The translations under genes and the position numbers were made by a program. A DNA stretch of 14,940 nucleotides from a virus, in the UHGV virus genome UHGV-0315034, one strand, 5' to 3'. Each line of letters begins with the position of its first letter. The first letter of the stretch is position 1. The notes below the pieces were generated by a model that saw only the letters and a program-made list of their open reading frames with translations, searched no databases and was not told where the DNA came from. Shown here in pieces: positions 409 through 14,899 of this stretch.

Positions 409-953
409 GGATTACTCCGGATACCGCCAATCACCAGCCTGCCGTGCGGGTCGTCGTAAGCCAGTGCCTGCTGCTGACCGAGTATTTTGTTGATTACCTC
501 AATCACCGTTTCACCGTGATCAGGCTGAACATCAGGAATAACACCCGACGGCGCACCGCTGTTCACCACCTCAATGCCGAAAGGCGCAGCAAGCGCCTGC
601 GCAATCTGCACCAGCGAGCGTCCGTTAAACTGTGTCGGTTCGGCTGCACAGTCAATCAGGTCAGCCGTCAGACTACGTCCGGCAATACCGGTGCTGACCG
701 AACGGGAATCGTAACGAACGGGCGTCGCCTCCACCCAGCCGGTGATCACCAGCTCATCACCAATCAGCACTTCCACTTTTGAACCGTTTTTAATGCGCGG
801 CTGAAGCGTGGTGATACCCTCATCTCCCGGCCACTGGCGGGTGATCTCCACACTGAAATCCCGCGCCAGCCGTTCAATACCGGCACCGATGCGCACCGAT
901 GTCCAGCCATTCCACTCCCGGCCATTTACCCGTAGCGTGACATTGTCGTTCAT
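396..953 (-). CDS. Truncated baseplate protein fragment (Mu gpP / P2 gpD-like N-terminal region)
   Basis: 185-aa ORF; N-terminus [22 protein letters not shown] resembles the start of gpD/Mu-P baseplate hub proteins, which are about twice as long. Overlaps the tail fibre start by 13 nt. Likely a remnant. Confidence 0.35.
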
Positions 954-2473
954 TGCACTGGCACCTTCAGAGGGATCACCGGCACAAAGCCGGGATGCGT
1001 AATGGCATTACGCCGGATAATGTCCGCGTCACGCGCCGCGTTATCAAACCAGGTCGCCGCCAGCACCAGCGCGGGTAAAACCTCATCCGGTGTGCGCTGA
1101 ATGATCCGTGCAGACTGTTCAAGGCGCGTGTTGATATCCGCATTCAGATCTGCTTTCACCCGGCGCAGCGCCAGAAACAGCGCATCGCTGGTTGTACGGG
1201 ACAACTCCTTATCAATTGCCGTATTCAGTGTGTCGCGAATGTCAGTCAGTTCTTCCCACGTCGGCAGGTCAACCGTGTTTTTCACCGCCGGTGCATTGTT
1301 CAGTGCCGGATGCGTGACGGAAGGCCAGCCAGTGCTCTGCGCGGGTGTTGTTGCCTGCCCCACTGCGGAATTCTGCATCACCGCGGAAGTTGTTGGCGCA
1401 GGCAATCGGGTGACGGCATACGCCGCTTCGCTGATTGCGGTCGTACGAAGGGTGCTGGCAACCACGTTACGCTGCTGCGTCGCCGTGGCGGTGGTTTTAC
1501 TGTCCGTTTTCCAGACGCCGCGCGGTTGCAGATCGCTGCCGAGGCTGACACCGGAAAGCGTTTTGATCATGGTGACCAGGTCGCTGGCGTTACCATAAAG
1601 GCGTTTCCCGGTACGCCACATTTTCTGCACCTGCTCAACGAAATTTTTGCCTGACGATGGCGGCGGCAGAAGTACCGAGATATCCCCCTGCAACAGCCTG
1701 GCGGCATCCGATACGGCAGAATCCACCACTTTCATCGCATCAGAAACATACCCAAGCATTGTGCTGGCATTACCGATAACGTCGTTCTGCACGAAATCCG
1801 CCACACCATCGATACTGAAACCGCTGAAGCTGTCACTGATGCGGTCATCCAGTGCAGAACAGGATGACATCAGCGTCTGCGCCGTCGCCGCACCTGATGT
1901 GGGGTAAGAGAGTTCTCCTGCTTCGACAAACTTCAGGTCAAAGCGGACAATACGCCCTTCACTTTTCGATGTGCTGACCCGAACTTCCCCGTCAACACAG
2001 ACTTTCAGCTCACCATATGTCGGGTGGACAAGCGTGCCGGGACCGGGTTTATTCAGCGCTTCAATCAGGCGATCGCGCTGGTCAAAGCAGTCATCTCCCA
2101 CCACATAAGCTGTGATGGACGGGCGGAAAGTGACTTTTCCCAGATCTTCGGTATGGCGTAACGACTGGATAGTGGTGATATCACCGGTTACGACATCAAC
2201 CAGGTCTTTGGTTTCATAACCGAGATATGTGTGTTTGAGAGCATCTTTTACCCAAGCTGGAGTGGCGAACGTTTTACCCCTGCTGATGAGGTATTCACTG
2301 ATTTCGCTGTACCACATGTGGCTGAGTGCATTCTGGGAAAGACTGCGTCTCTCGCGCCACGGTTTAAGCACCATGCGAAAGCATTTGCCGTCCTCCAGAT
2401 AAGGCTGGATCTGCCGACCGATAGCGGTGAAGTTACCGCGATGCAATTTGATACCATCTTGTGGGAGGTTCAC
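950..2473 (-). CDS. Chimeric ORF: NinB-like N-terminus (about 100 aa) fused in frame to Mu gpN-like DNA-circulation/baseplate protein
   Basis: N-terminal segment [23 protein letters not shown]...AWVKDALK matches the lambda NinB/Orf pattern (ERNRSLDQN...ESWKCVFTAALK) as recalled. Remainder ([32 protein letters not shown]...) resembles Mu N-type proteins. RBS GGAGGTG 7 nt upstream of ATG 2473. Confidence 0.5.
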
Positions 2474-2713
2474 GCTTCACCTCCGCAGAGGTCAAACGTT
2501 GGATGCAAGATATCGCAGGTGCATTTCTGCATCTGTGACTGGTTGAAAGGTGTTCTGATTGTCGTTTGCACTTTGAGTCCCCTCAAAGCGCAGAAGTCAC
2601 CGGAGTTGTTCAGGCTCCGATGACATGATTATGGCGAGTTGATTATGATGAATCAATAGGTTCTTATGTCAAATGGACACTAGATCCAAAGGAGGGTAAC
2701 AATTATCATAGCC

Positions 2714-2731
2714 AATGAGATTAATCTCATT
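2714..2731. promoter_or_regulatory. 18-bp perfect palindrome AATGAGATTAATCTCATT directly upstream of the 472-aa gene RBS
   Basis: Read directly; reverse complement identical. Followed by a T-run, the RBS AAGGA, then ATG 2749. Candidate operator or leader hairpin. Confidence 0.4.
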
Positions 2732-2748
2732 TTTAATAAGGAAATTTC

Positions 2749-4167
2749 ATGAAATATTTCTCAACTGGTTTTTATGTTTCAAACTCCACATCTCTAGCTG
2801 AGATCTTTAATGAATGTTTTTCTTGGGTAAACGACTCACCACATACAACTTTTATTCCAGCACAATTAGTATGTGATTATAAAAGCGAGGAGTACTTCAT
2901 AGAGTCTAAAAATGAAAGAATTGATATAATAACTTATAAAAACAAAGATACTAGTTTAGGCTGTTTTAGGTATTCGAAAATATCTGAGCCACACAAATGG
3001 GTAACAGATATTTCAATTAATAAAAATCTCAAAACTGATACCATGTGGATTCAGGTGGAATCTAGCGTTGTAAGCCAAGATGCAGCTTATCTAGCCCCGC
3101 AACCTAAGAAACCATTAGTTGTTATGAGATTGATTGATAAATTTCCTGGTGGTCTTGATGATATTTTCAAGGTGTCAGTCGAACCTCATTCCTTAGATGA
3201 TACTGATGAACATTTAAATATAGCAGCTAAAGTTATAAATGGTGAAACTGACAACAGACTACCAATAATATACGTTAGCTCCAAGTATTTTTTTAATGAA
3301 CATGCTCACAATATCATCCCAGAACGCCTTGCAAGAAAGGTATGCGGATTAGCACATGTATTAATTGAGCCTAGCAATAGACTATTTTCTATTAAGCTAA
3401 AAAATGAGACAAATGCTAAAAATGCCTATGCTGGTGCTGTTGGTATCTATTGGCCACGGGGTCAAAATATCAGTTTTTATCGCCGTGGTGAGAAAACCGC
3501 AAAAGAATTTGAAGATGAGTTATTTGATGATGTTGTAAGAGCTACGACTACAATGGCTCCTGTCTCAGATAGTGGATGGAGTGAGATACAAACCAGAAAA
3601 ACGAAAGACTCTATTAACTCACTCAAAGAAAGAGGAGAATACACACGCGAACTGATGGCGCTTTACGAAGCCGATAATGTTGCGAAAGATGACCAAATAG
3701 AAGATCTTAAGCATAAGATCTCCTCTTTAGAGCACAGAGTACGCACTCTTCAATCACAAGCTTCAGCCCAAGGAAGCATTGCGCTTAATGCTGGTGAAGA
3801 GACTGACTTTTTTGATGGAGAAATCAAAAATATAATTATTGACGCACTAAAAACTGCCATAAAAAATAAAAATGAATTTGGTAGAAGCTACCATATCTTA
3901 TCATCCCTAATTGCCAATAATGAATACAATAAAGAAACCGAGAGTCGCCGCCAATTACTTAAAAGGACTTTAACAGGTTACAGAAGCATGGATAGCGCAA
4001 CACAAAGAAATTTAAAGGACTTAGGTTTCAGTGCGTCAAGCGATGGAAAACACTGGAAGTTAACATATAATGAAGACCCTCGATATTCCTATATTTTACC
4101 TAAAACAGGAAGTGACCACAGAGGTTCTTTAAATGCTATCTCGGATATAGCAAATATTATTTTCTAA
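2749..4167 (+). CDS. Hypothetical 472-aa protein of unknown function in an AT-rich island (candidate exclusion/defence moron)
   Basis: Long ORF on the strand opposite to the pR operon; AAGGA 8-9 nt upstream of ATG; tandem stops TAATAA. Lys/Asn-rich, reflecting low GC. Central coiled-coil-like segment DQIEDLKHKISSLEHRVRTLQSQ. No Walker A or other motif I can recognise. Confidence 0.6.
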   Translation: MKYFSTGFYVSNSTSLAEIFNECFSWVNDSPHTTFIPAQLVCDYKSEEYFIESKNERIDIITYKNKDTSLGCFRYSKISEPHKWVTDISINKNLKTDTMWIQVESSVVSQDAAYLAPQPKKPLVVMRLIDKFPGGLDDIFKVSVEPHSLDDTDEHLNIAAKVINGETDNRLPIIYVSSKYFFNEHAHNIIPERLARKVCGLAHVLIEPSNRLFSIKLKNETNAKNAYAGAVGIYWPRGQNISFYRRGEKTAKEFEDELFDDVVRATTTMAPVSDSGWSEIQTRKTKDSINSLKERGEYTRELMALYEADNVAKDDQIEDLKHKISSLEHRVRTLQSQASAQGSIALNAGEETDFFDGEIKNIIIDALKTAIKNKNEFGRSYHILSSLIANNEYNKETESRRQLLKRTLTGYRSMDSATQRNLKDLGFSASSDGKHWKLTYNEDPRYSYILPKTGSDHRGSLNAISDIANIIF

Positions 4168-4175
4168 TAAATTTC

Positions 4176-4201
4176 AATAGCACTCACAAATGAGTGCTAT
4201 T
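4176..4201. terminator. Perfect hairpin (11-bp stem AATAGCACTCA / TGAGTGCTATT, loop CAAA) between convergent genes
   Basis: Read directly; lies 9 nt after the 472-aa stop and 17 nt downstream of the 84-aa ORF stop. Flanking U-tracts are weak, so terminator function is uncertain. Confidence 0.45.
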
Positions 4202-4218
4202 GTTGCCACTGAATTATT

Positions 4219-4473
4219 CTATTTAAATTCAACTTTTATCCCTTTGTTTAGCAGGGCATCAGAAACTGCCTTTTTTGTAACATTTATCCCTGCAAGCAAT
4301 GCTTTATGCATTGGTCCCTTAAAAATCTCTACTTCTTCTTCAGTGAGTTTAGGCAATGTAATATAAATAACATCTTTCATCTGCTTGTTTTTATAGCATG
4401 AGCTTCTTGTGTGCTTACAATCGATATTTTCTTTATTTCCCAAAACATCATCCCCTTTATAATTCAGTTCCAC
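4219..4473 (-). CDS. Hypothetical small protein (84 aa), convergent with the 472-aa gene
   Basis: ORF-track ORF with a GTG start and no convincing Shine-Dalgarno; internal ATG at 4380. AT-rich context makes chance ORFs likely. Sits 64 bp downstream of ren on the same strand. Confidence 0.3.
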   Translation of the reverse strand: MELNYKGDDVLGNKENIDCKHTRSSCYKNKQMKDVIYITLPKLTEEEVEIFKGPMHKALLAGINVTKKAVSDALLNKGIKVEFK

Positions 4474-4537
4474 ACATCAATTATTTAGTTATCACGAATG
4501 TCGTAAAACTAAAATTAGTAACAATAATTGCTCATAC

Positions 4538-4825
4538 CTACCCTCTTCCATATAAAGCCAACACCCGCTTCATCGCGGCACTTTGACGACACTCCTTAAA
4601 AATCAGATTCGTGCTCACCTTTCCTTCCCGTTCTTCTCTGGTAGCGAACCGGTAATACACCGTTCGCCAGACCTTACCATCAACGACCAGGATTCCTGCC
4701 CGCGCCATTTTAGCCGCAGCCTGATTTATGCTGGTTACGGTTGCGCCTGTTACCGCGGCAACGTCCTGCGCACAGAAGTTCTTATGAGTCCCCAGGTAAT
4801 GAATAATTGCCTCTTTGCCCGTCAT
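4538..4825 (-). CDS. ren: Ren protein (lambda-type)
   Basis: Product MTGKEAIIHYLGTH...VWRTVYYRFATREEREGK closely matches lambda Ren as recalled. ATGA overlap with the P stop. Confidence 0.9.
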   Translation of the reverse strand: MTGKEAIIHYLGTHKNFCAQDVAAVTGATVTSINQAAAKMARAGILVVDGKVWRTVYYRFATREEREGKVSTNLIFKECRQSAAMKRVLALYGRG

Positions 4826-5523: not shown

Positions 5524-6539
5524 AAATCCACCCCGTAAATCCAGTCAGTGTTTGTCAGGTCGAGTTTTGATTTTCCGGCTGTCACGCCAGCCTGTTGCTT
5601 GTTACGGTTGATTTCGAGTTGGGTCCACTTGTCGCGGAGTTTGGCCGGACTTAGCACGTTACCGGACCAGAAGTTGTCCTGGCATGCCCAGCGGAACAGC
5701 ACGCACATGTCGCGGTGGTTACGGCCGTCACGTTCACGCATCAGGCGGATATCGTTAGCCCACCCTGCAAAATTCGGTTTTCTGGCTGATGGCGCGATGG
5801 TCTTCACCATGTCAAACATCCACTCTGCGGCGGTCAGGTCTTCTGCTGTCCCCCACTTGCTGCCACTCTGAATTGCAGCATCCGGTTTAACCACAGGAAG
5901 ATCGTCTTCTGGTTGGTCAGAGGATTCGCCAGAATTCTCGGACGAAAAAGGTTTTATATTGTCTTTTGTTAGTTTGTCTTTTGTGTTTACCTGATTCGGG
6001 TAAACGCCTTTACCTGATTTGGGTAAACTTTTCTTACCTGATTCAGGTAAATTTACCTCTTTCAGGTAAACTTTATTTTTCTTACCTGATTCGGGTAATG
6101 TTGACCATTCACTGACCACATTATTAATGCCTATATTCCGCCCGCTCTGAATAAAAATCCCACGCTTTACCAGAGCACTTTTTGCAGCAGAACACTTGTG
6201 CGGCAATATCCCGGTCAACTCGGAAAGTTGCTCGTTGCTCACCCAATCCAGTTTTTTATTAAAGCCATATGTTTTGCGCATGACAGCCAGGAAGACCAGA
6301 AGCTGGTGCTGTGTTAATCCGGCCAGCATTACAGCTTCCAGCAACTCATTTGCAATGCGCGTATAACCATCATCGAGATCTGCCACGCGCGGCTCCTTTT
6401 GTGCCGCATCCGGCACAGGAAAATTGAATATCTCAGCAGTGTTTGCCATAATTCCTCCCGCAATGAGTGTGTTACGATTTGCACCTGAAAGTCGGTTCTG
6501 TTCCCGCAGACCGACTTTCGCCATTTTTGAACCTGTCAT
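5520..6539 (-). CDS. O: Replication initiator O-like protein (diverged iteron-binding N-domain, lambda-like C-terminus)
   Basis: N-terminal ADLDDGYTRIANELLEA...LRKTYG matches the lambda O N-domain family. Iteron array lies inside the gene (encoded as repeated PESGKK). C-terminus ...TDWIYGVDL is lambda-O-like. ATGA overlap with the upstream gene. Confidence 0.85.
   Translation of the reverse strand: MTGSKMAKVGLREQNRLSGANRNTLIAGGIMANTAEIFNFPVPDAAQKEPRVADLDDGYTRIANELLEAVMLAGLTQHQLLVFLAVMRKTYGFNKKLDWVSNEQLSELTGILPHKCSAAKSALVKRGIFIQSGRNIGINNVVSEWSTLPESGKKNKVYLKEVNLPESGKKSLPKSGKGVYPNQVNTKDKLTKDNIKPFSSENSGESSDQPEDDLPVVKPDAAIQSGSKWGTAEDLTAAEWMFDMVKTIAPSARKPNFAGWANDIRLMRERDGRNHRDMCVLFRWACQDNFWSGNVLSPAKLRDKWTQLEINRNKQQAGVTAGKSKLDLTNTDWIYGVDL
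5988..6100. repeat. Origin of replication: five ~18-bp iterons (consensus TACCTGATTCGGGTAAAC) with adjacent AT-rich tract (5941..5987)
   Basis: Read directly: iterons at 5988..6005, 6011..6028, 6035..6052, 6054..6071, 6083..6100; the third contains the perfect palindrome TACCTGA-T-TCAGGTA. Same architecture as lambda ori inside O, but a different sequence from the lambda iterons. Confidence 0.8.
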
Positions 6540-7075
6540 ATTGCCCCCAACATGGTGGTAACCATCGCCATCAATGGACCAGCCAGATCCGGGTCCACAC
6601 GAAACATCGACACAATACCTTCACTCATCTCCTTCAGTTTCTGGTGGCGTGGTGCGTTGAGAATGACAGCCTGTTTTGCCTCACTGAGTTCCTTTTCCAT
6701 TTCAGCCAACCGAGTCATGAAGCTATCCTGCTCAACCAGGTAACCGCGATATTCCAGCGGTAGTACCGCCAGAATTGCCGGGGTCAGTTCACGCACGTTA
6801 TTTCGGTATTTTTCAGAATCGAATTTGTTATCGAGGAAGCGGAACAGCTTCTGGCGTGCACGGCTGACATCATCAGGGAAATCGATGGTGCCGCCGCCCT
6901 GCTCCCGATACTCATTCACAATGAGTGCGGCAACAACATCCTGATTATCTGCAGCCGACCAGGCGCGGACGGCATCACGGATTTTTTCGTGGCCTGGCAC
7001 CTGTTTTGTTTGAGAACGATTTATCACCGCAGTCGGGCTAAATCCGCTAGTCTGTTGGTATGTAAGTGGTTGCAT
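6536..7075 (-). CDS. Regulatory protein in the cII position (YdaT / CII-like family suspected)
   Basis: 179-aa ORF directly downstream of the cro-like gene and upstream of O, with RBS AAGGAG 6 nt before ATG. Much longer than lambda CII (97 aa); position mirrors ydaS-ydaT in Rac-type immunity regions. Family assignment is from recall only. Confidence 0.45.
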   Translation of the reverse strand: MQPLTYQQTSGFSPTAVINRSQTKQVPGHEKIRDAVRAWSAADNQDVVAALIVNEYREQGGGTIDFPDDVSRARQKLFRFLDNKFDSEKYRNNVRELTPAILAVLPLEYRGYLVEQDSFMTRLAEMEKELSEAKQAVILNAPRHQKLKEMSEGIVSMFRVDPDLAGPLMAMVTTMLGAI

Positions 7076-7120
7076 AATTGACTCCTTTAGTTTGAATTGA
7101 CTGTTAAGTTGATTGCTTAT

Positions 7121-7132
7121 TGTTAAAGAGCG
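7121..7132 (-). promoter_or_regulatory. boxA-like element (CGCTCTTTAACA on the minus strand), candidate nutR
   Basis: Read directly between the cro stop and the next gene start; lambda boxA is CGCTCTTACACA. No convincing boxB hairpin seen downstream. Confidence 0.4.
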
Positions 7133-7144
7133 TGAAATGGAAAT

Positions 7145-7375
7145 TTAAGCTGCGTTCTTTTCGGTGTGTGGAAACAACTTCGGAAGATCCGGGCGAATCT
7201 GGTATGCCTTCACTACTCCACCAGTAGCCGTAACAATGCTGCCGACATGTTCAGGGGATACCTTTGCTTTGTTGTGAAGCCACTTATAGACGGCCTGCTG
7301 TGAAACTTCGCAGGCAGCGCCCAGTTTCTTTTGTGAACCAACGATATTGATCGCTGTTTTGATAGCTGGGTTCAT
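7145..7375 (-). CDS. cro: Cro-like HTH repressor (YdaS-like)
   Basis: 76 aa with HTH segment KKLGAACEVSQQAVYKW; divergent from the cI-like gene; strong RBS GGAGG 5 nt before ATG. Confidence 0.8.
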   Translation of the reverse strand: MNPAIKTAINIVGSQKKLGAACEVSQQAVYKWLHNKAKVSPEHVGSIVTATGGVVKAYQIRPDLPKLFPHTEKNAA

Positions 7376-7479
7376 AACAACCTCCGTGGTTAATTCGAAT
7401 CAAGATTAAAACTATGGTTGTTTTTAGTCAACAACCATTTTCGTTTGATAGAATAAAACCTTGGTTGTACATTTGGACT
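7376..7479. promoter_or_regulatory. Divergent promoter/operator region (pR/pRM equivalent) with operator palindrome ATGGTTGTT-N7-AACAACCAT at 7414..7438
   Basis: Intergenic between divergent cro-like and cI-like genes; 9-bp perfect inverted arms read directly; extra GTTGT half-site at 7462..7468. Confidence 0.6.
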
Positions 7480-8169
7480 ATGAAAACAACACTCTCAGAA
7501 AGACTTAAAGAAGCCAGATTAGCGCGAGGCCTTACACAAAAGGCGCTTGGGGATTTGGTCGGGGTTAGCCAAGCTGCTATTCAGAAAATCGAAACAGGGA
7601 AAGCTAACCAAACAACTAAAATCGTGGAGATCGCGAACGCTTTGGGTGTGCGCGCAGAATGGTTATCTTCTGGCGTTGGAAATATGTCAGACAGTACAGT
7701 GCAACCAATACCATCAACTGTCAGCCATTCCAAATACTTTAAGATTGACGTTCTTGATATAGAAGTGAGTGCCGGGCCGGGAGTCATCAACCGTGAGTTT
7801 GTAGAAGTTCTACGCTCGGTTGAGTACTCGTTTGACGATGCTCGTCACATGTTCGATGGTAGGAAGGCAGAAAATATCCGCATCATTAACGTACGCGGTG
7901 ACAGCATGTCAGGAACGATCGAACCAGGTGATCTGCTGTTCGTTGATATCACGGTTAAATCTTTCGACGGTGATGGCATCTATGCGTTTCTGTACGACGA
8001 CACCGCCCATGTAAAGCGCCTGCAAATGATGAAGGATAAGCTGCTGGTTATCTCTGATAACAAGAGCTACTCACCGTGGGACCCGATCGAGAAAGACGAG
8101 ATGAACCGGGTGTTTATCTTCGGGAAAGTTATTGGGAGCATGCCGCAAACATATAGGAAGCATGGTTAG
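7480..8169 (+). CDS. cI: CI-type prophage repressor (N-terminal HTH plus C-terminal LexA/S24-like autocleavage domain)
   Basis: HTH LSERLKEARLARGLTQKALGDLVGVSQAAIQKIETGK; C-terminal RGDSMSGTIEPGDLLFVD...VKR matches the S24 peptidase Ser/Lys motif region. Start chosen at ATG 7480; the ORF-track start at 7414 lies inside the operator palindrome. Confidence 0.85.
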   Translation: MKTTLSERLKEARLARGLTQKALGDLVGVSQAAIQKIETGKANQTTKIVEIANALGVRAEWLSSGVGNMSDSTVQPIPSTVSHSKYFKIDVLDIEVSAGPGVINREFVEVLRSVEYSFDDARHMFDGRKAENIRIINVRGDSMSGTIEPGDLLFVDITVKSFDGDGIYAFLYDDTAHVKRLQMMKDKLLVISDNKSYSPWDPIEKDEMNRVFIFGKVIGSMPQTYRKHG

Positions 8170-8240: not shown

Positions 8241-9152
8241 ATGAGCCATCAGTCCGCCCACCAACAAGAAATGTCTTTATTTCCTGTAAAAGAAGTTGAA
8301 GTAAACGGTGTACAAATGGGTGTTCTCAATGATGGAACTCCATTTTTGAGTCTCCGTGGATTATCTAGGTTATGTGGGGTCGATCACACCACACTTTTAC
8401 CTCTCACCACCAACTGGTCAATAGAAAAGAATAAACCCAGAGGAAGGAGAATTGCGGAGCTTCTTTCAGAGAATGGTTTTAAAGGTGATCAATTATATTC
8501 CGTTGTCGGCGGAGGCGCATTTGGTGATACACATGCCTATCCAGATGCCGTATGCATGGCAATTCTTGAATATTATGCTTTCGATGCCACACAGGTTGAT
8601 AGCACTATAGCCAGGAAAAATTACCGCCTATTAGCACGTCAAACACTTCGAGACTATATATACAAAAGTGTAGGTATTGACCCGAGAAATCCAATTAGTG
8701 GCGCCTGGAAATGTTTTCAAGAGCGAATATTGCTTAATGACAAAATTCCTGCAGGTTTCTTCAGTGTTTTTAGAGAGATGGTCGATATCACAGTTCCACT
8801 TATCAATGCAGGATTTGAGCTTGGCCCAAAAACAGTACCTGATATTAGTGTGGGTGGACGATGGGCAATCCACTGGAAGAAAAACAATCTTAGTGAAAAA
8901 TATGGCGATGTGAAAAAATATCCACATGAATATCCAGATTGGTTTCCTCAAAGTAAAGCAGGAAAAGTTCCTGCCAATATTTATCCGGAAGAGGCTTTAG
9001 GTGAATTTCGCAGATGGCTAAGAGAAGAATACATTCCAAAGGGTTTCAAAGATTATCTTGCTGATAAAGTTCAGCAGAAAGTAATTGAAAATACTAAGGC
9101 TATTGAAGTTTTAGAAAATTTGCAGCGCCCAAATCTCCCTAAGGCTCGTTAA
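8241..9152 (+). CDS. 303-aa protein in the rex slot downstream of cI; KilA-N/Bro-N-like N-terminus; possible BstA-family abortive-infection protein
   Basis: Co-oriented 72 bp downstream of cI and followed by a clean terminator. N-terminal VNGVQMGVLNDGTPFLSLRGLSRLCGVDHTTL resembles KilA-N-type DNA-binding domains. Size and position match what I recall of BstA; not lambda RexA by recall. AT-richer than flanking phage genes. Confidence 0.45.
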   Translation: MSHQSAHQQEMSLFPVKEVEVNGVQMGVLNDGTPFLSLRGLSRLCGVDHTTLLPLTTNWSIEKNKPRGRRIAELLSENGFKGDQLYSVVGGGAFGDTHAYPDAVCMAILEYYAFDATQVDSTIARKNYRLLARQTLRDYIYKSVGIDPRNPISGAWKCFQERILLNDKIPAGFFSVFREMVDITVPLINAGFELGPKTVPDISVGGRWAIHWKKNNLSEKYGDVKKYPHEYPDWFPQSKAGKVPANIYPEEALGEFRRWLREEYIPKGFKDYLADKVQQKVIENTKAIEVLENLQRPNLPKAR

Positions 9153-13447: not shown

Positions 13448-13769
13448 GGCCTGTCAGTTTCTCAAGATATCCAGACCTACCGCTACCAACTGGATACGAA
13501 CAGGCCGCCTACAGGCAACACGCAAAGACCCCACTAAACTAAAATCTCCTTACCTCACAACACGACAAGCCTGCATTGCGGCGCTTCAGTCTCCGCTGCA
13601 TACTGTCCAGGTGAGCGCGGGTGATGGCATAACAGAGGAAAGAAAATGTCACTCTTCCGCAGAGGTGAAATATGGTACGCCAGTTTCACATTGCCGAACG
13701 GTAAAAGATTTAAACAGTCTCTTGGAACAAAGGACAAAAGGCAGGCGACAGAGCTCCATGACAAGCTAA
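13419..13769 (+). CDS. xis: Excisionase Xis (P22-type)
   Basis: [38 protein letters not shown]... matches P22 Xis as recalled; GAGG RBS; 124-nt overlap with the int start in a different frame. Confidence 0.85.
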
Positions 13770-14809
13770 AGGCTGAAGCATGGCGGGTCAGCAAACTTGG
13801 TGAAATACCTGATATGACGTTCGAGGAGGCGTGTATCAGGTGGCTCGAAGAGAAAGCACATAAAAAATCACTGGACGATGACAAAAGCCGGATCGGATTC
13901 TGGCTTCAACATTTCGCAGGAATGCAACTAAGAGACATTACTGAATCAAAAATTTATTCAGCAATGCAGAAAATGACGAACCGGCGTCATGAGGAAAACT
14001 GGAAACTCAGGGCAGAAGCATGCAGAAAAAAAGGGAAACCTGTTCCAGAATACACGCCAAAACCAGCGTCCGTTGCAACGAAGGCTACGCATCTTTCATT
14101 TATAAAGGCCCTACTAAGAGCCGCAGAGCGTGAATGGAAAATGCTGGATAAGGCACCAATTATTAAAGTGCCTCAACCAAAGAATAAACGGATCCGCTGG
14201 CTGGAGCCCCATGAAGCACAAAGGCTGATTGATGAATGTCCGGAGCCATTAAAGTCTGTTGTTGAATTTGCACTGGCAACAGGCTTAAGACGCTCGAACA
14301 TCATCAACCTTGAATGGCAACAAATAGATATGCAGCGCCGGGTGGCATGGATAAACCCGGAAGAGAGTAAATCAAACCGCGCAATCGGCGTTGCGCTGAA
14401 TGATACTGCATGTCGCGTTTTGAAAAAACAAATCGGGAATCATCACCGTTGGGTATTTGTGTACAAGGAAAGCTGTACCAAACCAGACGGAACGAAAGCG
14501 CCAACAGTAAGGAAGATGCGGTATGACGCAAACACAGCCTGGAAAGCGGCGCTGAGACGGGCTGGTATTGATGATTTCAGATTTCACGACTTGAGACACA
14601 CCTGGGCAAGTTGGCTGGTTCAAGCCGGAGTCCCGTTGTCAGTGTTACAGGAAATGGGAGGCTGGGAGTCTATCGAAATGGTTCGTCGATATGCTCACCT
14701 TGCACCTAATCACCTTACCGAACACGCACGGCAAATAGACTCGATCCTGAACCCATCGGTCCCAAATTTGTCCCAGTCAAAAAATAAGGAAGGTACTAAT
14801 GATGTGTAA
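13646..14809 (+). CDS. int: Tyrosine integrase (P22 Int-type)
   Basis: 387 aa; [47 protein letters not shown]... matches P22 Int as recalled; C-terminal [10 protein letters not shown]...YAHL catalytic region; ends 14 bp before the tRNA 3' end. Confidence 0.95.
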
Positions 14810-14823
14810 CTTATTGATTTAAA

Positions 14824-14899
14824 TGGTGCCGATAATAGGAGTCGAACCTACGACCTTCGCATTACGAATGCGCTGCTCTACCAACTGAGCTATATCGGC
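14824..14899 (-). tRNA. thrW: tRNA-Thr (anticodon CGU), thrW-type; prophage attachment junction overlaps its 3' end
   Basis: Reverse complement of 14824..14899 folds as a 76-nt cloverleaf: acceptor GCCGATA/TATCGGC, D-stem GCTC/GAGC, anticodon loop TTCGTAA, T-loop GGTTCGACTCC, encoded CCA. Confidence 0.9.

Follow-up and report, generated by a model that had tools for sequence, protein, structure and literature searches.

Closest described systems

Among the described defense systems, the closest to the locus studied here are DS-10 and HEC-07. DS-10 (WP_087897267.1, working identifier ZAPB) was reported by DeWeirdt et al. in the DefensePredictor study (Science 2026; PMC13092281), where Table S6 scores it "defensive TRUE" under the category "Predicted novel defense gene"; its transcription unit comprises a single gene and lists one protein. 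HEC-07 is the P. aeruginosa protein WP_033943166.1, a validated single-protein system described as consisting of AdoMetDC-like, thioredoxin-like (lacking CxxC) and RelE-like RNase domains (Payne et al. 2024; 10.1101/2024.01.29.577857). Here we relate both systems to an open reading frame (ORF) of 472 amino acids (aa) found at 2749-4167 (+) in a stretch of 14,940 nucleotides (nt) of virus genome UHGV-0315034; this whole stretch is called the window. The ORF lies in an AT-rich insert between ren and ninB of a lambdoid prophage, and had been pointed out from the DNA letters alone as part of a candidate undescribed exclusion or defense locus (referred to below as the sequence-only reading).

The phenotype of DS-10 was established by cloning the gene alone, under its native promoter, in a low-copy plasmid in MG1655 and challenging this strain with 24 phages (PMC13092281). 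Bas1 fell from 3e6 to 30 plaque-forming units (PFU), a -log(efficiency of plating) of 5, i.e. 10^5-fold; lambda fell from 6e7 to 1.1e7 PFU and made smaller plaques, and Bas3 kept its plating efficiency, also with smaller plaques (Table S7, PMC13092281). The defense result is marked as replicated TRUE. An HHpred search in that paper placed HicA 6HPB_C at residues 416-471 with a probability of 0.91, and in its main text the domain is described simply as "a HicA mRNA interferase". Genomic context, mechanism and any domain model beyond HicA are absent from the paper, and the protein was classed as lacking homology to known systems (PMC13092281).

The 472-aa gene as an allele of DS-10

The match to DS-10 was found through the first residues of the protein in the supplement of DeWeirdt et al. 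(PMC13092281). The window protein and WP_087897267.1 are identical at 395 of the 399 residues compared, with no gaps, and both are 472 aa long and encoded by a 1,419-nt coding sequence. Four substitutions, T62N, V124I, I215T and A345V, distinguish DS-10 and the window allele. The 472-aa gene is thus very probably an allele of DS-10, that is, a single-gene anti-phage defense system carried as ren-ninB cargo. The defense phenotype was measured on the 99%-identical DS-10 protein, and the window allele itself, judged from this identity, very probably protects as well. The exclusion or defense role proposed in the sequence-only reading agrees with a DS-10 result that is both defensive and replicated, and the experiment suggested there, cloning under the native promoter followed by plaque assays, turned out to be already published for the DS-10 allele, with protection as its outcome. 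The locus was wrongly called undescribed, its gene being on record as DS-10 (PMC13092281). A defense gene was nevertheless correctly picked from raw sequence by composition, orientation and slot, which serves as a check of the method. The gene itself was already known; our additions are a domain model, an estimate of the family size, the repeated occurrence of the family in the P/ren-ninB slot, and a distant relationship to HEC-07 in which the RNase module has been exchanged.

Purifying selection acts on the gene, as the ratio of nonsynonymous to synonymous substitution rates (dN/dS) was 0.12 in the comparison with a 98%-identical copy. All the invariant residues of the family are present in the window protein, and a protein cluster with 270 members includes its exact sequence.

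Domain organization and conservation

Direct scans of the full protein gave only coiled-coil noise in NCBIfam and Pfam, an unnamed phrog in PHROGs and nothing in a sequence search of the PDB. The profile search proposed in the sequence-only reading gave a PADLOC HEC-07 match (E=1e-9) that is partial, covering residues 83-340 of 472 and profile positions 107-372 of 553. This match and the HicA-like domain described below overturn the statement that the protein could not be assigned to any family.

The N-terminal domain (about aa 1-115; 2749-3093, +) has a predicted START/Bet v1-like fold and is a candidate sensor. It is followed by a thioredoxin-fold domain without CxxC (about aa 120-270; 3106-3558, +), in which the family motif reads G-x-A-H-V-x-x-E-P (G200, A202, H203, E207 and P208). 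Long coiled-coil-like helices come next in the AlphaFold2 secondary structure (aa 277-294 and 300-337; 3577-3759, +), and Pfam gave weak Tropomyosin and Taxilin matches at residues 281-347. The central coiled-coil-like stretch noticed by eye is therefore real, its longest part being the helix at 300-337, in spite of the weakness of the Pfam coiled-coil matches, and in the model it is likely an oligomerization element. A small helical bundle was modeled at residues 358-408. The protein ends in a HicA-like domain of alpha-beta-beta-beta-alpha topology (aa 416-470; 3994-4158, +), which we predict to be the RNase effector.

Several comparisons point to the HicA-like character of this last domain. 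Modeled alone, the C-terminal unit adopted the alpha-beta-beta-beta-alpha fold of the double-stranded RNA-binding domain (dsRBD) type. The hhalign comparison between the domain profile and E. coli HicA (sequence verified as 6hpb_A) gave a probability of 72% and placed H435 on the histidine of the GSNH motif. The PADLOC "HicA-like" model matched 22 of 56 family members (best E value, 6e-7), and Pfam HicA_toxin (PF07927) matched 6 of 28 isolated C-terminal fragments (best E value, 0.004); the full window protein had no Pfam HicA match, falling under the gathering threshold. This assignment agrees with the independent HHpred result of the DS-10 paper (PMC13092281).

Conservation was analyzed over 56 diverse members of the family. 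W26, D137, P172, E358, R379 and H435 (codon at 4051-4053) were invariant, and the G-x-A-H-V-x-x-E-P motif and the D443/R445/D456/R458 cluster were nearly so. Within the C-terminal domain, G426, F427, K437, D443, R445, D456, R458 and N462 were invariant or conserved in at least 90% of the members.

Like the type II HicA toxins (PF07927; 6HPB, 5YRZ, 6G26, 4P78 and 1WHZ), the window domain has a dsRBD-like fold and the Gly/His position in the second strand. Unlike those toxins of about 60 aa, it is the C-terminal domain of a 472-aa protein, has no HicB neighbor, stays under the Pfam threshold and shows extra invariant residues. No HicB antitoxin gene was found in the window or in the other contexts examined. 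Comparable in organization are the fused HicA classes 13 and 14 (Gerdes 2024, mBio, PMC10865869), which are also monocistronic, have a C-terminal HicA and were proposed to act in defense. In class 13 (340-440 aa) the N-terminal region consists largely of alpha-helices, class 14 is an SMC fusion, and the START-like plus thioredoxin-like architecture has been described for neither of them (PMC10865869).

Relationship with HEC-07

The HEC-07 comparison used residues 1-399 of the protein tested by Payne et al. (Table S2) and PADLOC models PDLC04158-04161. Forty-nine of the 56 family members matched the HEC-07 models, never past profile position 372 of 553. An hhalign comparison between the family profile and HEC-07 gave 97% probability and an E value of 5e-11 over 232 columns, with 16% identity, aligning residues 82-317 of the window protein with residues 101-351 of HEC-07. 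The two families have in common the motifs W-x-T-E, G-x-A-H-V and L-Y-E-x-D-N. In both of them a single large protein is sufficient for defense, and a thioredoxin-like domain without CxxC is followed by a helical region. The ends of the proteins are different. HEC-07 has about 549 aa and its C-terminus was reported as RelE-like, whereas the window protein has 472 aa and a HicA-like C-terminus; the RelE-like RNase of HEC-07, with its conserved histidine, is absent here, as no member aligned to the C-terminal third of the models. At the other end, the HEC-07 domain was described as AdoMetDC-like whereas that of the window protein scores as START/Bet v1-like. HEC-07 was found embedded in Hma systems whereas the window gene occupies a prophage slot.

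Since the HEC-07 matches are limited to profile positions up to 372, both families would have the middle scaffold in common, with different effectors at the C-terminus. The alignments suggest, then, that HEC-07 and DS-10 have a common scaffold on which the RNase effectors were swapped. We lean slightly towards a broader view, in which the two belong to one large unnamed superfamily made of a START-like/thioredoxin-like scaffold, a coiled coil and interchangeable C-terminal RNases of the HicA-like or RelE-like type. If this is true, the scaffold would be a general infection sensor, and one trigger, once found, would be applicable to thousands of proteins. The HEC-07 link also opens a route to annotating more than 1,000 "hypothetical" proteins on prophages, satellites and integrative and conjugative elements (ICEs). 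In the text examined of the two source papers, Payne et al. 2024 and DeWeirdt et al. 2026, we found no mention of a relation between DS-10 and HEC-07, nor of the domain model.

We also observed that WP_001313577.1 is HEC-08 in Payne et al. 2024 and DS-38 (working identifier HEP2) in DeWeirdt et al. 2026, so the two screens overlap on at least one protein.

Proposed mechanism and alternative explanations

As to the mode of action, we put forward, with confidence evenly balanced between belief and doubt, a HicA-like RNase that is inhibited in cis, released by a phage cue and leads to abortive infection. The 472-aa protein would be a self-contained sensor-effector, in which the N-terminal START-like and thioredoxin-like domains would act both as sensor and as in-cis inhibitor and the long central helices would mediate oligomerization. 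The C-terminal HicA-like RNase, centered on the invariant His435, would stay silent until triggered by an infecting phage; it would then cut cellular or phage RNA, stop translation and abort the infection. A separate antitoxin would be unnecessary. CapRel(SJ46) offers an analogy only: it is one polypeptide whose sensor domain restrains the toxin until a phage protein binds (as described in PMC10865869), but it shows no homology to the window protein, its toxin chemistry is tRNA pyrophosphorylation and its domain order is different. Taken as a whole, identity, defense role and mechanism make up a reading that we consider probable.

Several points weigh against this reading. The identity with WP_087897267.1 covers 399 of 472 residues, as its last 73 residues lay outside the comparison. 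Strong protection by DS-10 was seen for Bas1 alone, and Bas1 was restricted by many of the systems screened (PMC13092281). Neither RNase activity, toxicity, a trigger nor an active-site mutant was reported for DS-10, the strain table of the paper lists no DS-10 mutants, and no follow-up studies of DS-10 turned up in a literature search. The near-invariant D443, R445, Y446, D456 and R458 have no counterpart in canonical HicA, and therefore the chemistry or the partner may differ. Finally, we have assumed expression in the lysogen, and abortive infection rather than direct interference. Regarding the former, the gene would be transcribed from its own promoter, against the pR operon, and so could be made in the lysogen.

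These reservations give some room to other explanations. One of them, which we regard as unlikely, keeps the defense role of DS-10 and makes the HicA-like domain a non-catalytic RNA-binding module of the dsRBD type, used for sensing or docking, with the activity seated elsewhere, e.g. in the H203/E207 motif of the thioredoxin fold or in the titration of a phage factor. HicA does have the dsRBD fold, which often does no more than bind RNA, and the HicA similarity scores are modest; besides, the motif most strongly shared with HEC-07, G-x-A-H-V, belongs to the thioredoxin-like domain, and canonical HicA does not have the conserved clusters D-x-R-Y and S-D-x-R. What speaks for a catalytic domain is that the histidine aligned with that of HicA is invariant across the family, and that the HEC-07 relative was reported to have a RelE-like RNase at the same position, as fits an exchangeable C-terminal effector. 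There is little likelihood that the gene is a fused toxin-antitoxin addiction module stabilizing the prophage or island, the Bas1 phenotype being a side effect. Single fused HicA proteins have been discussed as toxin-antitoxin modules (PMC10865869) and the gene is always on mobile elements, but one unprocessed polypeptide cannot give post-segregational killing by differential stability, the gene protects when alone on a plasmid (PMC13092281), and it sits in typical defense-cargo slots, beside other defense candidates.

The two remaining alternatives concern the composition and the state of the locus. A second ORF, of 84 aa, converges on the 472-aa gene, and in lambdoid prophages the two could form a unit in which the small protein acts as antitoxin, regulator or self-immunity factor. 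Every lambdoid-lineage copy, divergent metagenomic ones included, has both ORFs together, and a 4-codon in-frame indel leaves the small one open. None of the other family members examined has the small ORF beside it, though; the ORF has neither homologues nor domains, its dN/dS is about 1.1 and the validation of DS-10 involved one protein alone (PMC13092281), which makes a two-gene system very improbable. It is hardly credible that the 472-aa gene is a non-defense moron or a functionless gene decaying in a defective prophage. The prophage of the window is indeed defective, as judged from a fusion between ninB and a tail gene, and its allele has four substitutions relative to DS-10 among the 399 residues compared; however, the reading frame is unbroken and evolves under purifying selection, every invariant residue of the family is kept, and the cluster of 270 members contains exactly this protein.

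The AT-rich insert and the ren-ninB slot

The GC content (300-nt windows) was 0.30-0.41 at about 2550-4650 and 0.48-0.59 in the flanks, in agreement with the drop in base composition noticed originally. The limits of the insert had been set at 2625-4537, and these needed correction. The blastn homology to K-12 DLP12, PhiR30_1 and strain 16F5M1D1 stops at 2644-2661 and restarts at 4550-4559, and since homology to three lambdoid elements ends and resumes at those edges, the foreign, AT-rich cargo DNA spans about 1.9 kb, at about 2657-4558. The terminal few codons of ren fall within this insert-specific DNA.

Among 5,426 complete E. coli genomes the insert was present in 24, in all of them between ren and ybcN/ninB, and the flanks were matched in 3,713. 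Its position between these two genes was thus correctly read, with the correction that ninB is truncated in the window and fused to a tail gene. In strain JS01 the prophage with a 100%-identical insert is located at ybhC instead of a tRNA, and therefore the module has moved or recombined between lambdoid prophages.

The gap between ren and ninB is a variable cargo slot. In K-12 DLP12 it contains emrE-ylcJ-ybcK-ybcL-ybcM-ylcH, and in PhiR30_1 an acyltransferase and a lipoprotein. In another lambdoid phage (our locus L034, positions 6001-7425; IMG/VR UViG 2786546178) a 67%-identical homologue of the 472-aa protein occupies the slot between P and NinB, on the opposite strand and with HNH genes nearby, which suggests that the family has used this slot more than once. 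The prophage moron-slot layout that had been suggested for the locus is well supported by these cases.

Family size and genomic contexts

A word-indexed search retrieved 74 clusters, all of about 470 aa and all annotated as "hypothetical", from Enterobacterales, Pseudomonas and Caulobacter. An exhaustive profile search found 3,467 representatives at E<=0.001 and 1,038 at E<=1e-30, these family counts being clusters at 50% identity. Nearly all of the best 150 representatives from the profile search were full-length, with 460-480 aa.

A survey of genomic neighborhoods, another of the checks that had been proposed, showed the homologues in cargo slots of prophages, satellite-like elements and ICEs. 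The 77%-identical homologue of E. coli and Salmonella lies next to an integrase on the border of an integrative island that contains a DUF927 gene, at two chromosomal sites. The DNA common to the window and this gene is 2738-4171 alone; as sharing is confined to the ORF, the ORF alone would be the mobile unit. A Dickeya homologue is ICE cargo, adjoining IS110 and an Mrr-like gene. Homologues from Lelliottia and Pseudomonas are found at the ends of P2-like prophages, 3' of the tail-fibre genes, and the Pseudomonas one adjoins the PADLOC candidate PDC-M03A/B. A 25%-identical member lies amid weak viperin-like, Hsp70-like and Schlafen-like genes, and relatives were present on 17 IMG/VR viral contigs, frequently close to the contig end. 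No neighbor gene was conserved across eight family contexts.

In the Pseudomonas case, a metagenome contig (L016, 6114-7839) with the end of a P2-like prophage, the DS-10 homologue is placed immediately 3' of a HipA-like kinase pair. This pair matches PDC-M03A/B with E values of 3e-223 and 5e-74.

The convergent 84-aa ORF

The small convergent ORF was confirmed at 4219-4473 (-), downstream of ren. Only four close relatives were found among 5.8 billion proteins, and no match was obtained in Pfam, PADLOC, PHROG or NCBIfam, nor in tblastn searches of phages. The ORF is confined to the lambdoid copies. Its dN/dS of about 1.1 was estimated from few sites, in contrast with the 0.12 of the adjacent 472-aa gene. 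A role as defense partner was rejected because of its absence elsewhere, its neutral evolution and its position outside the validated DS-10 unit (PMC13092281), and with it the two-gene locus of the sequence-only reading. To judge from its sequence and distribution, the ORF is a lineage-specific passenger or decaying remnant, apparently dispensable for defense. We also discarded that it is the remnant of a phospholipase D nuclease, given its lack of domains and homologues; the "phospholipase D-like domain-containing" label of one RefSeq record was not reproducible.

Candidate expression signals of the 472-aa gene

The orientation of the 472-aa ORF, opposite to the pR operon, was confirmed, as was the presence of its own ribosome-binding site (AAGGA at 2738-2742, 6 nt 5' of the ATG). 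A native promoter can be expected because DS-10 works from its own upstream region. A consensus scan identified a sigma-70-like candidate, TGGACA-18-AACAAT, at 2674-2703 (+), a pattern match with 9 of 12 positions that falls in the insert-specific upstream DNA.

The 18-bp perfect palindrome reported upstream of the gene, AATGAGATTAATCTCATT, is indeed located at 2714-2731, 17 nt 5' of the ATG, and could be an operator. The window contains a single copy of it, whereas 0.01 matches would be expected at <=3 mismatches. The palindrome is unchanged in a divergent copy (L028), a conservation that is statistically uninformative; for this reason, and because the 77%-identical gene has a different, far-upstream palindrome, a conserved operator found no support. 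Neither did an RNA element, because the RNA hairpin fold is ordinary (z=0.03) and no Rfam family matched in the insert.

The other perfect palindrome, of 20 bp, ATTAATGATTAATCATTAAT, is about 230 nt upstream of the island-borne 77%-identical gene (L003-L010). It has the ATTAAT core in common with the window palindrome, which may reflect a common regulator or mere AT-richness.

Between the convergent ORFs there is a perfect hairpin, as had been noted, but its stem has 12 pairs instead of 11, with a 4-nt loop (4175-4202). It is a candidate for a weak bidirectional terminator; a strong terminator was discarded since there is no clear T-run on either side.

The host prophage

The window corresponds to a DLP12-like lambdoid prophage in reverse orientation. 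A 387-aa integrase (13646-14809, +) lies directly beside a tRNA (14827-14899, -), a layout like that of argU/intD in K-12 DLP12. The minus strand of the window encodes Cro, O, P, ren and ninB, and a cI-like repressor is at 7414-8169 (+). The right flank of the slot is ren (4538-4825, -), taken from the RefSeq annotation of identical DNA and showing 93-95% DNA identity with ren from many lambdoid phages. The left flank is the 5' part of ninB/ybcN, about 105 codons (2142-2473, -). It belongs to an ORF at 950-2473 (-) that starts with the NinB N-terminus and continues in frame with Pfam DNA_circ_N at residues 106-158, the fusion partner being a Mu-like DNA-circularization (tail) protein. The junction is at about 2142-2154, as homology to ninB starts at 2142 and that to the tail module ends at 2154. 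No such ninB/tail-gene junction was found among the complete E. coli genomes of the collection. With ninB truncated and fused to a tail gene the prophage is defective, and the Q, lysis and head genes between ninB and the tail gene are therefore missing.

Just 3' of the cI-like repressor, at the rexAB position, a 303-aa gene (8241-9152, +) was identified as BstA by a full-length PADLOC match (E=7e-122). BstA is a known prophage abortive-infection protein, and with the DS-10 allele this defective prophage therefore has at least two defense genes.

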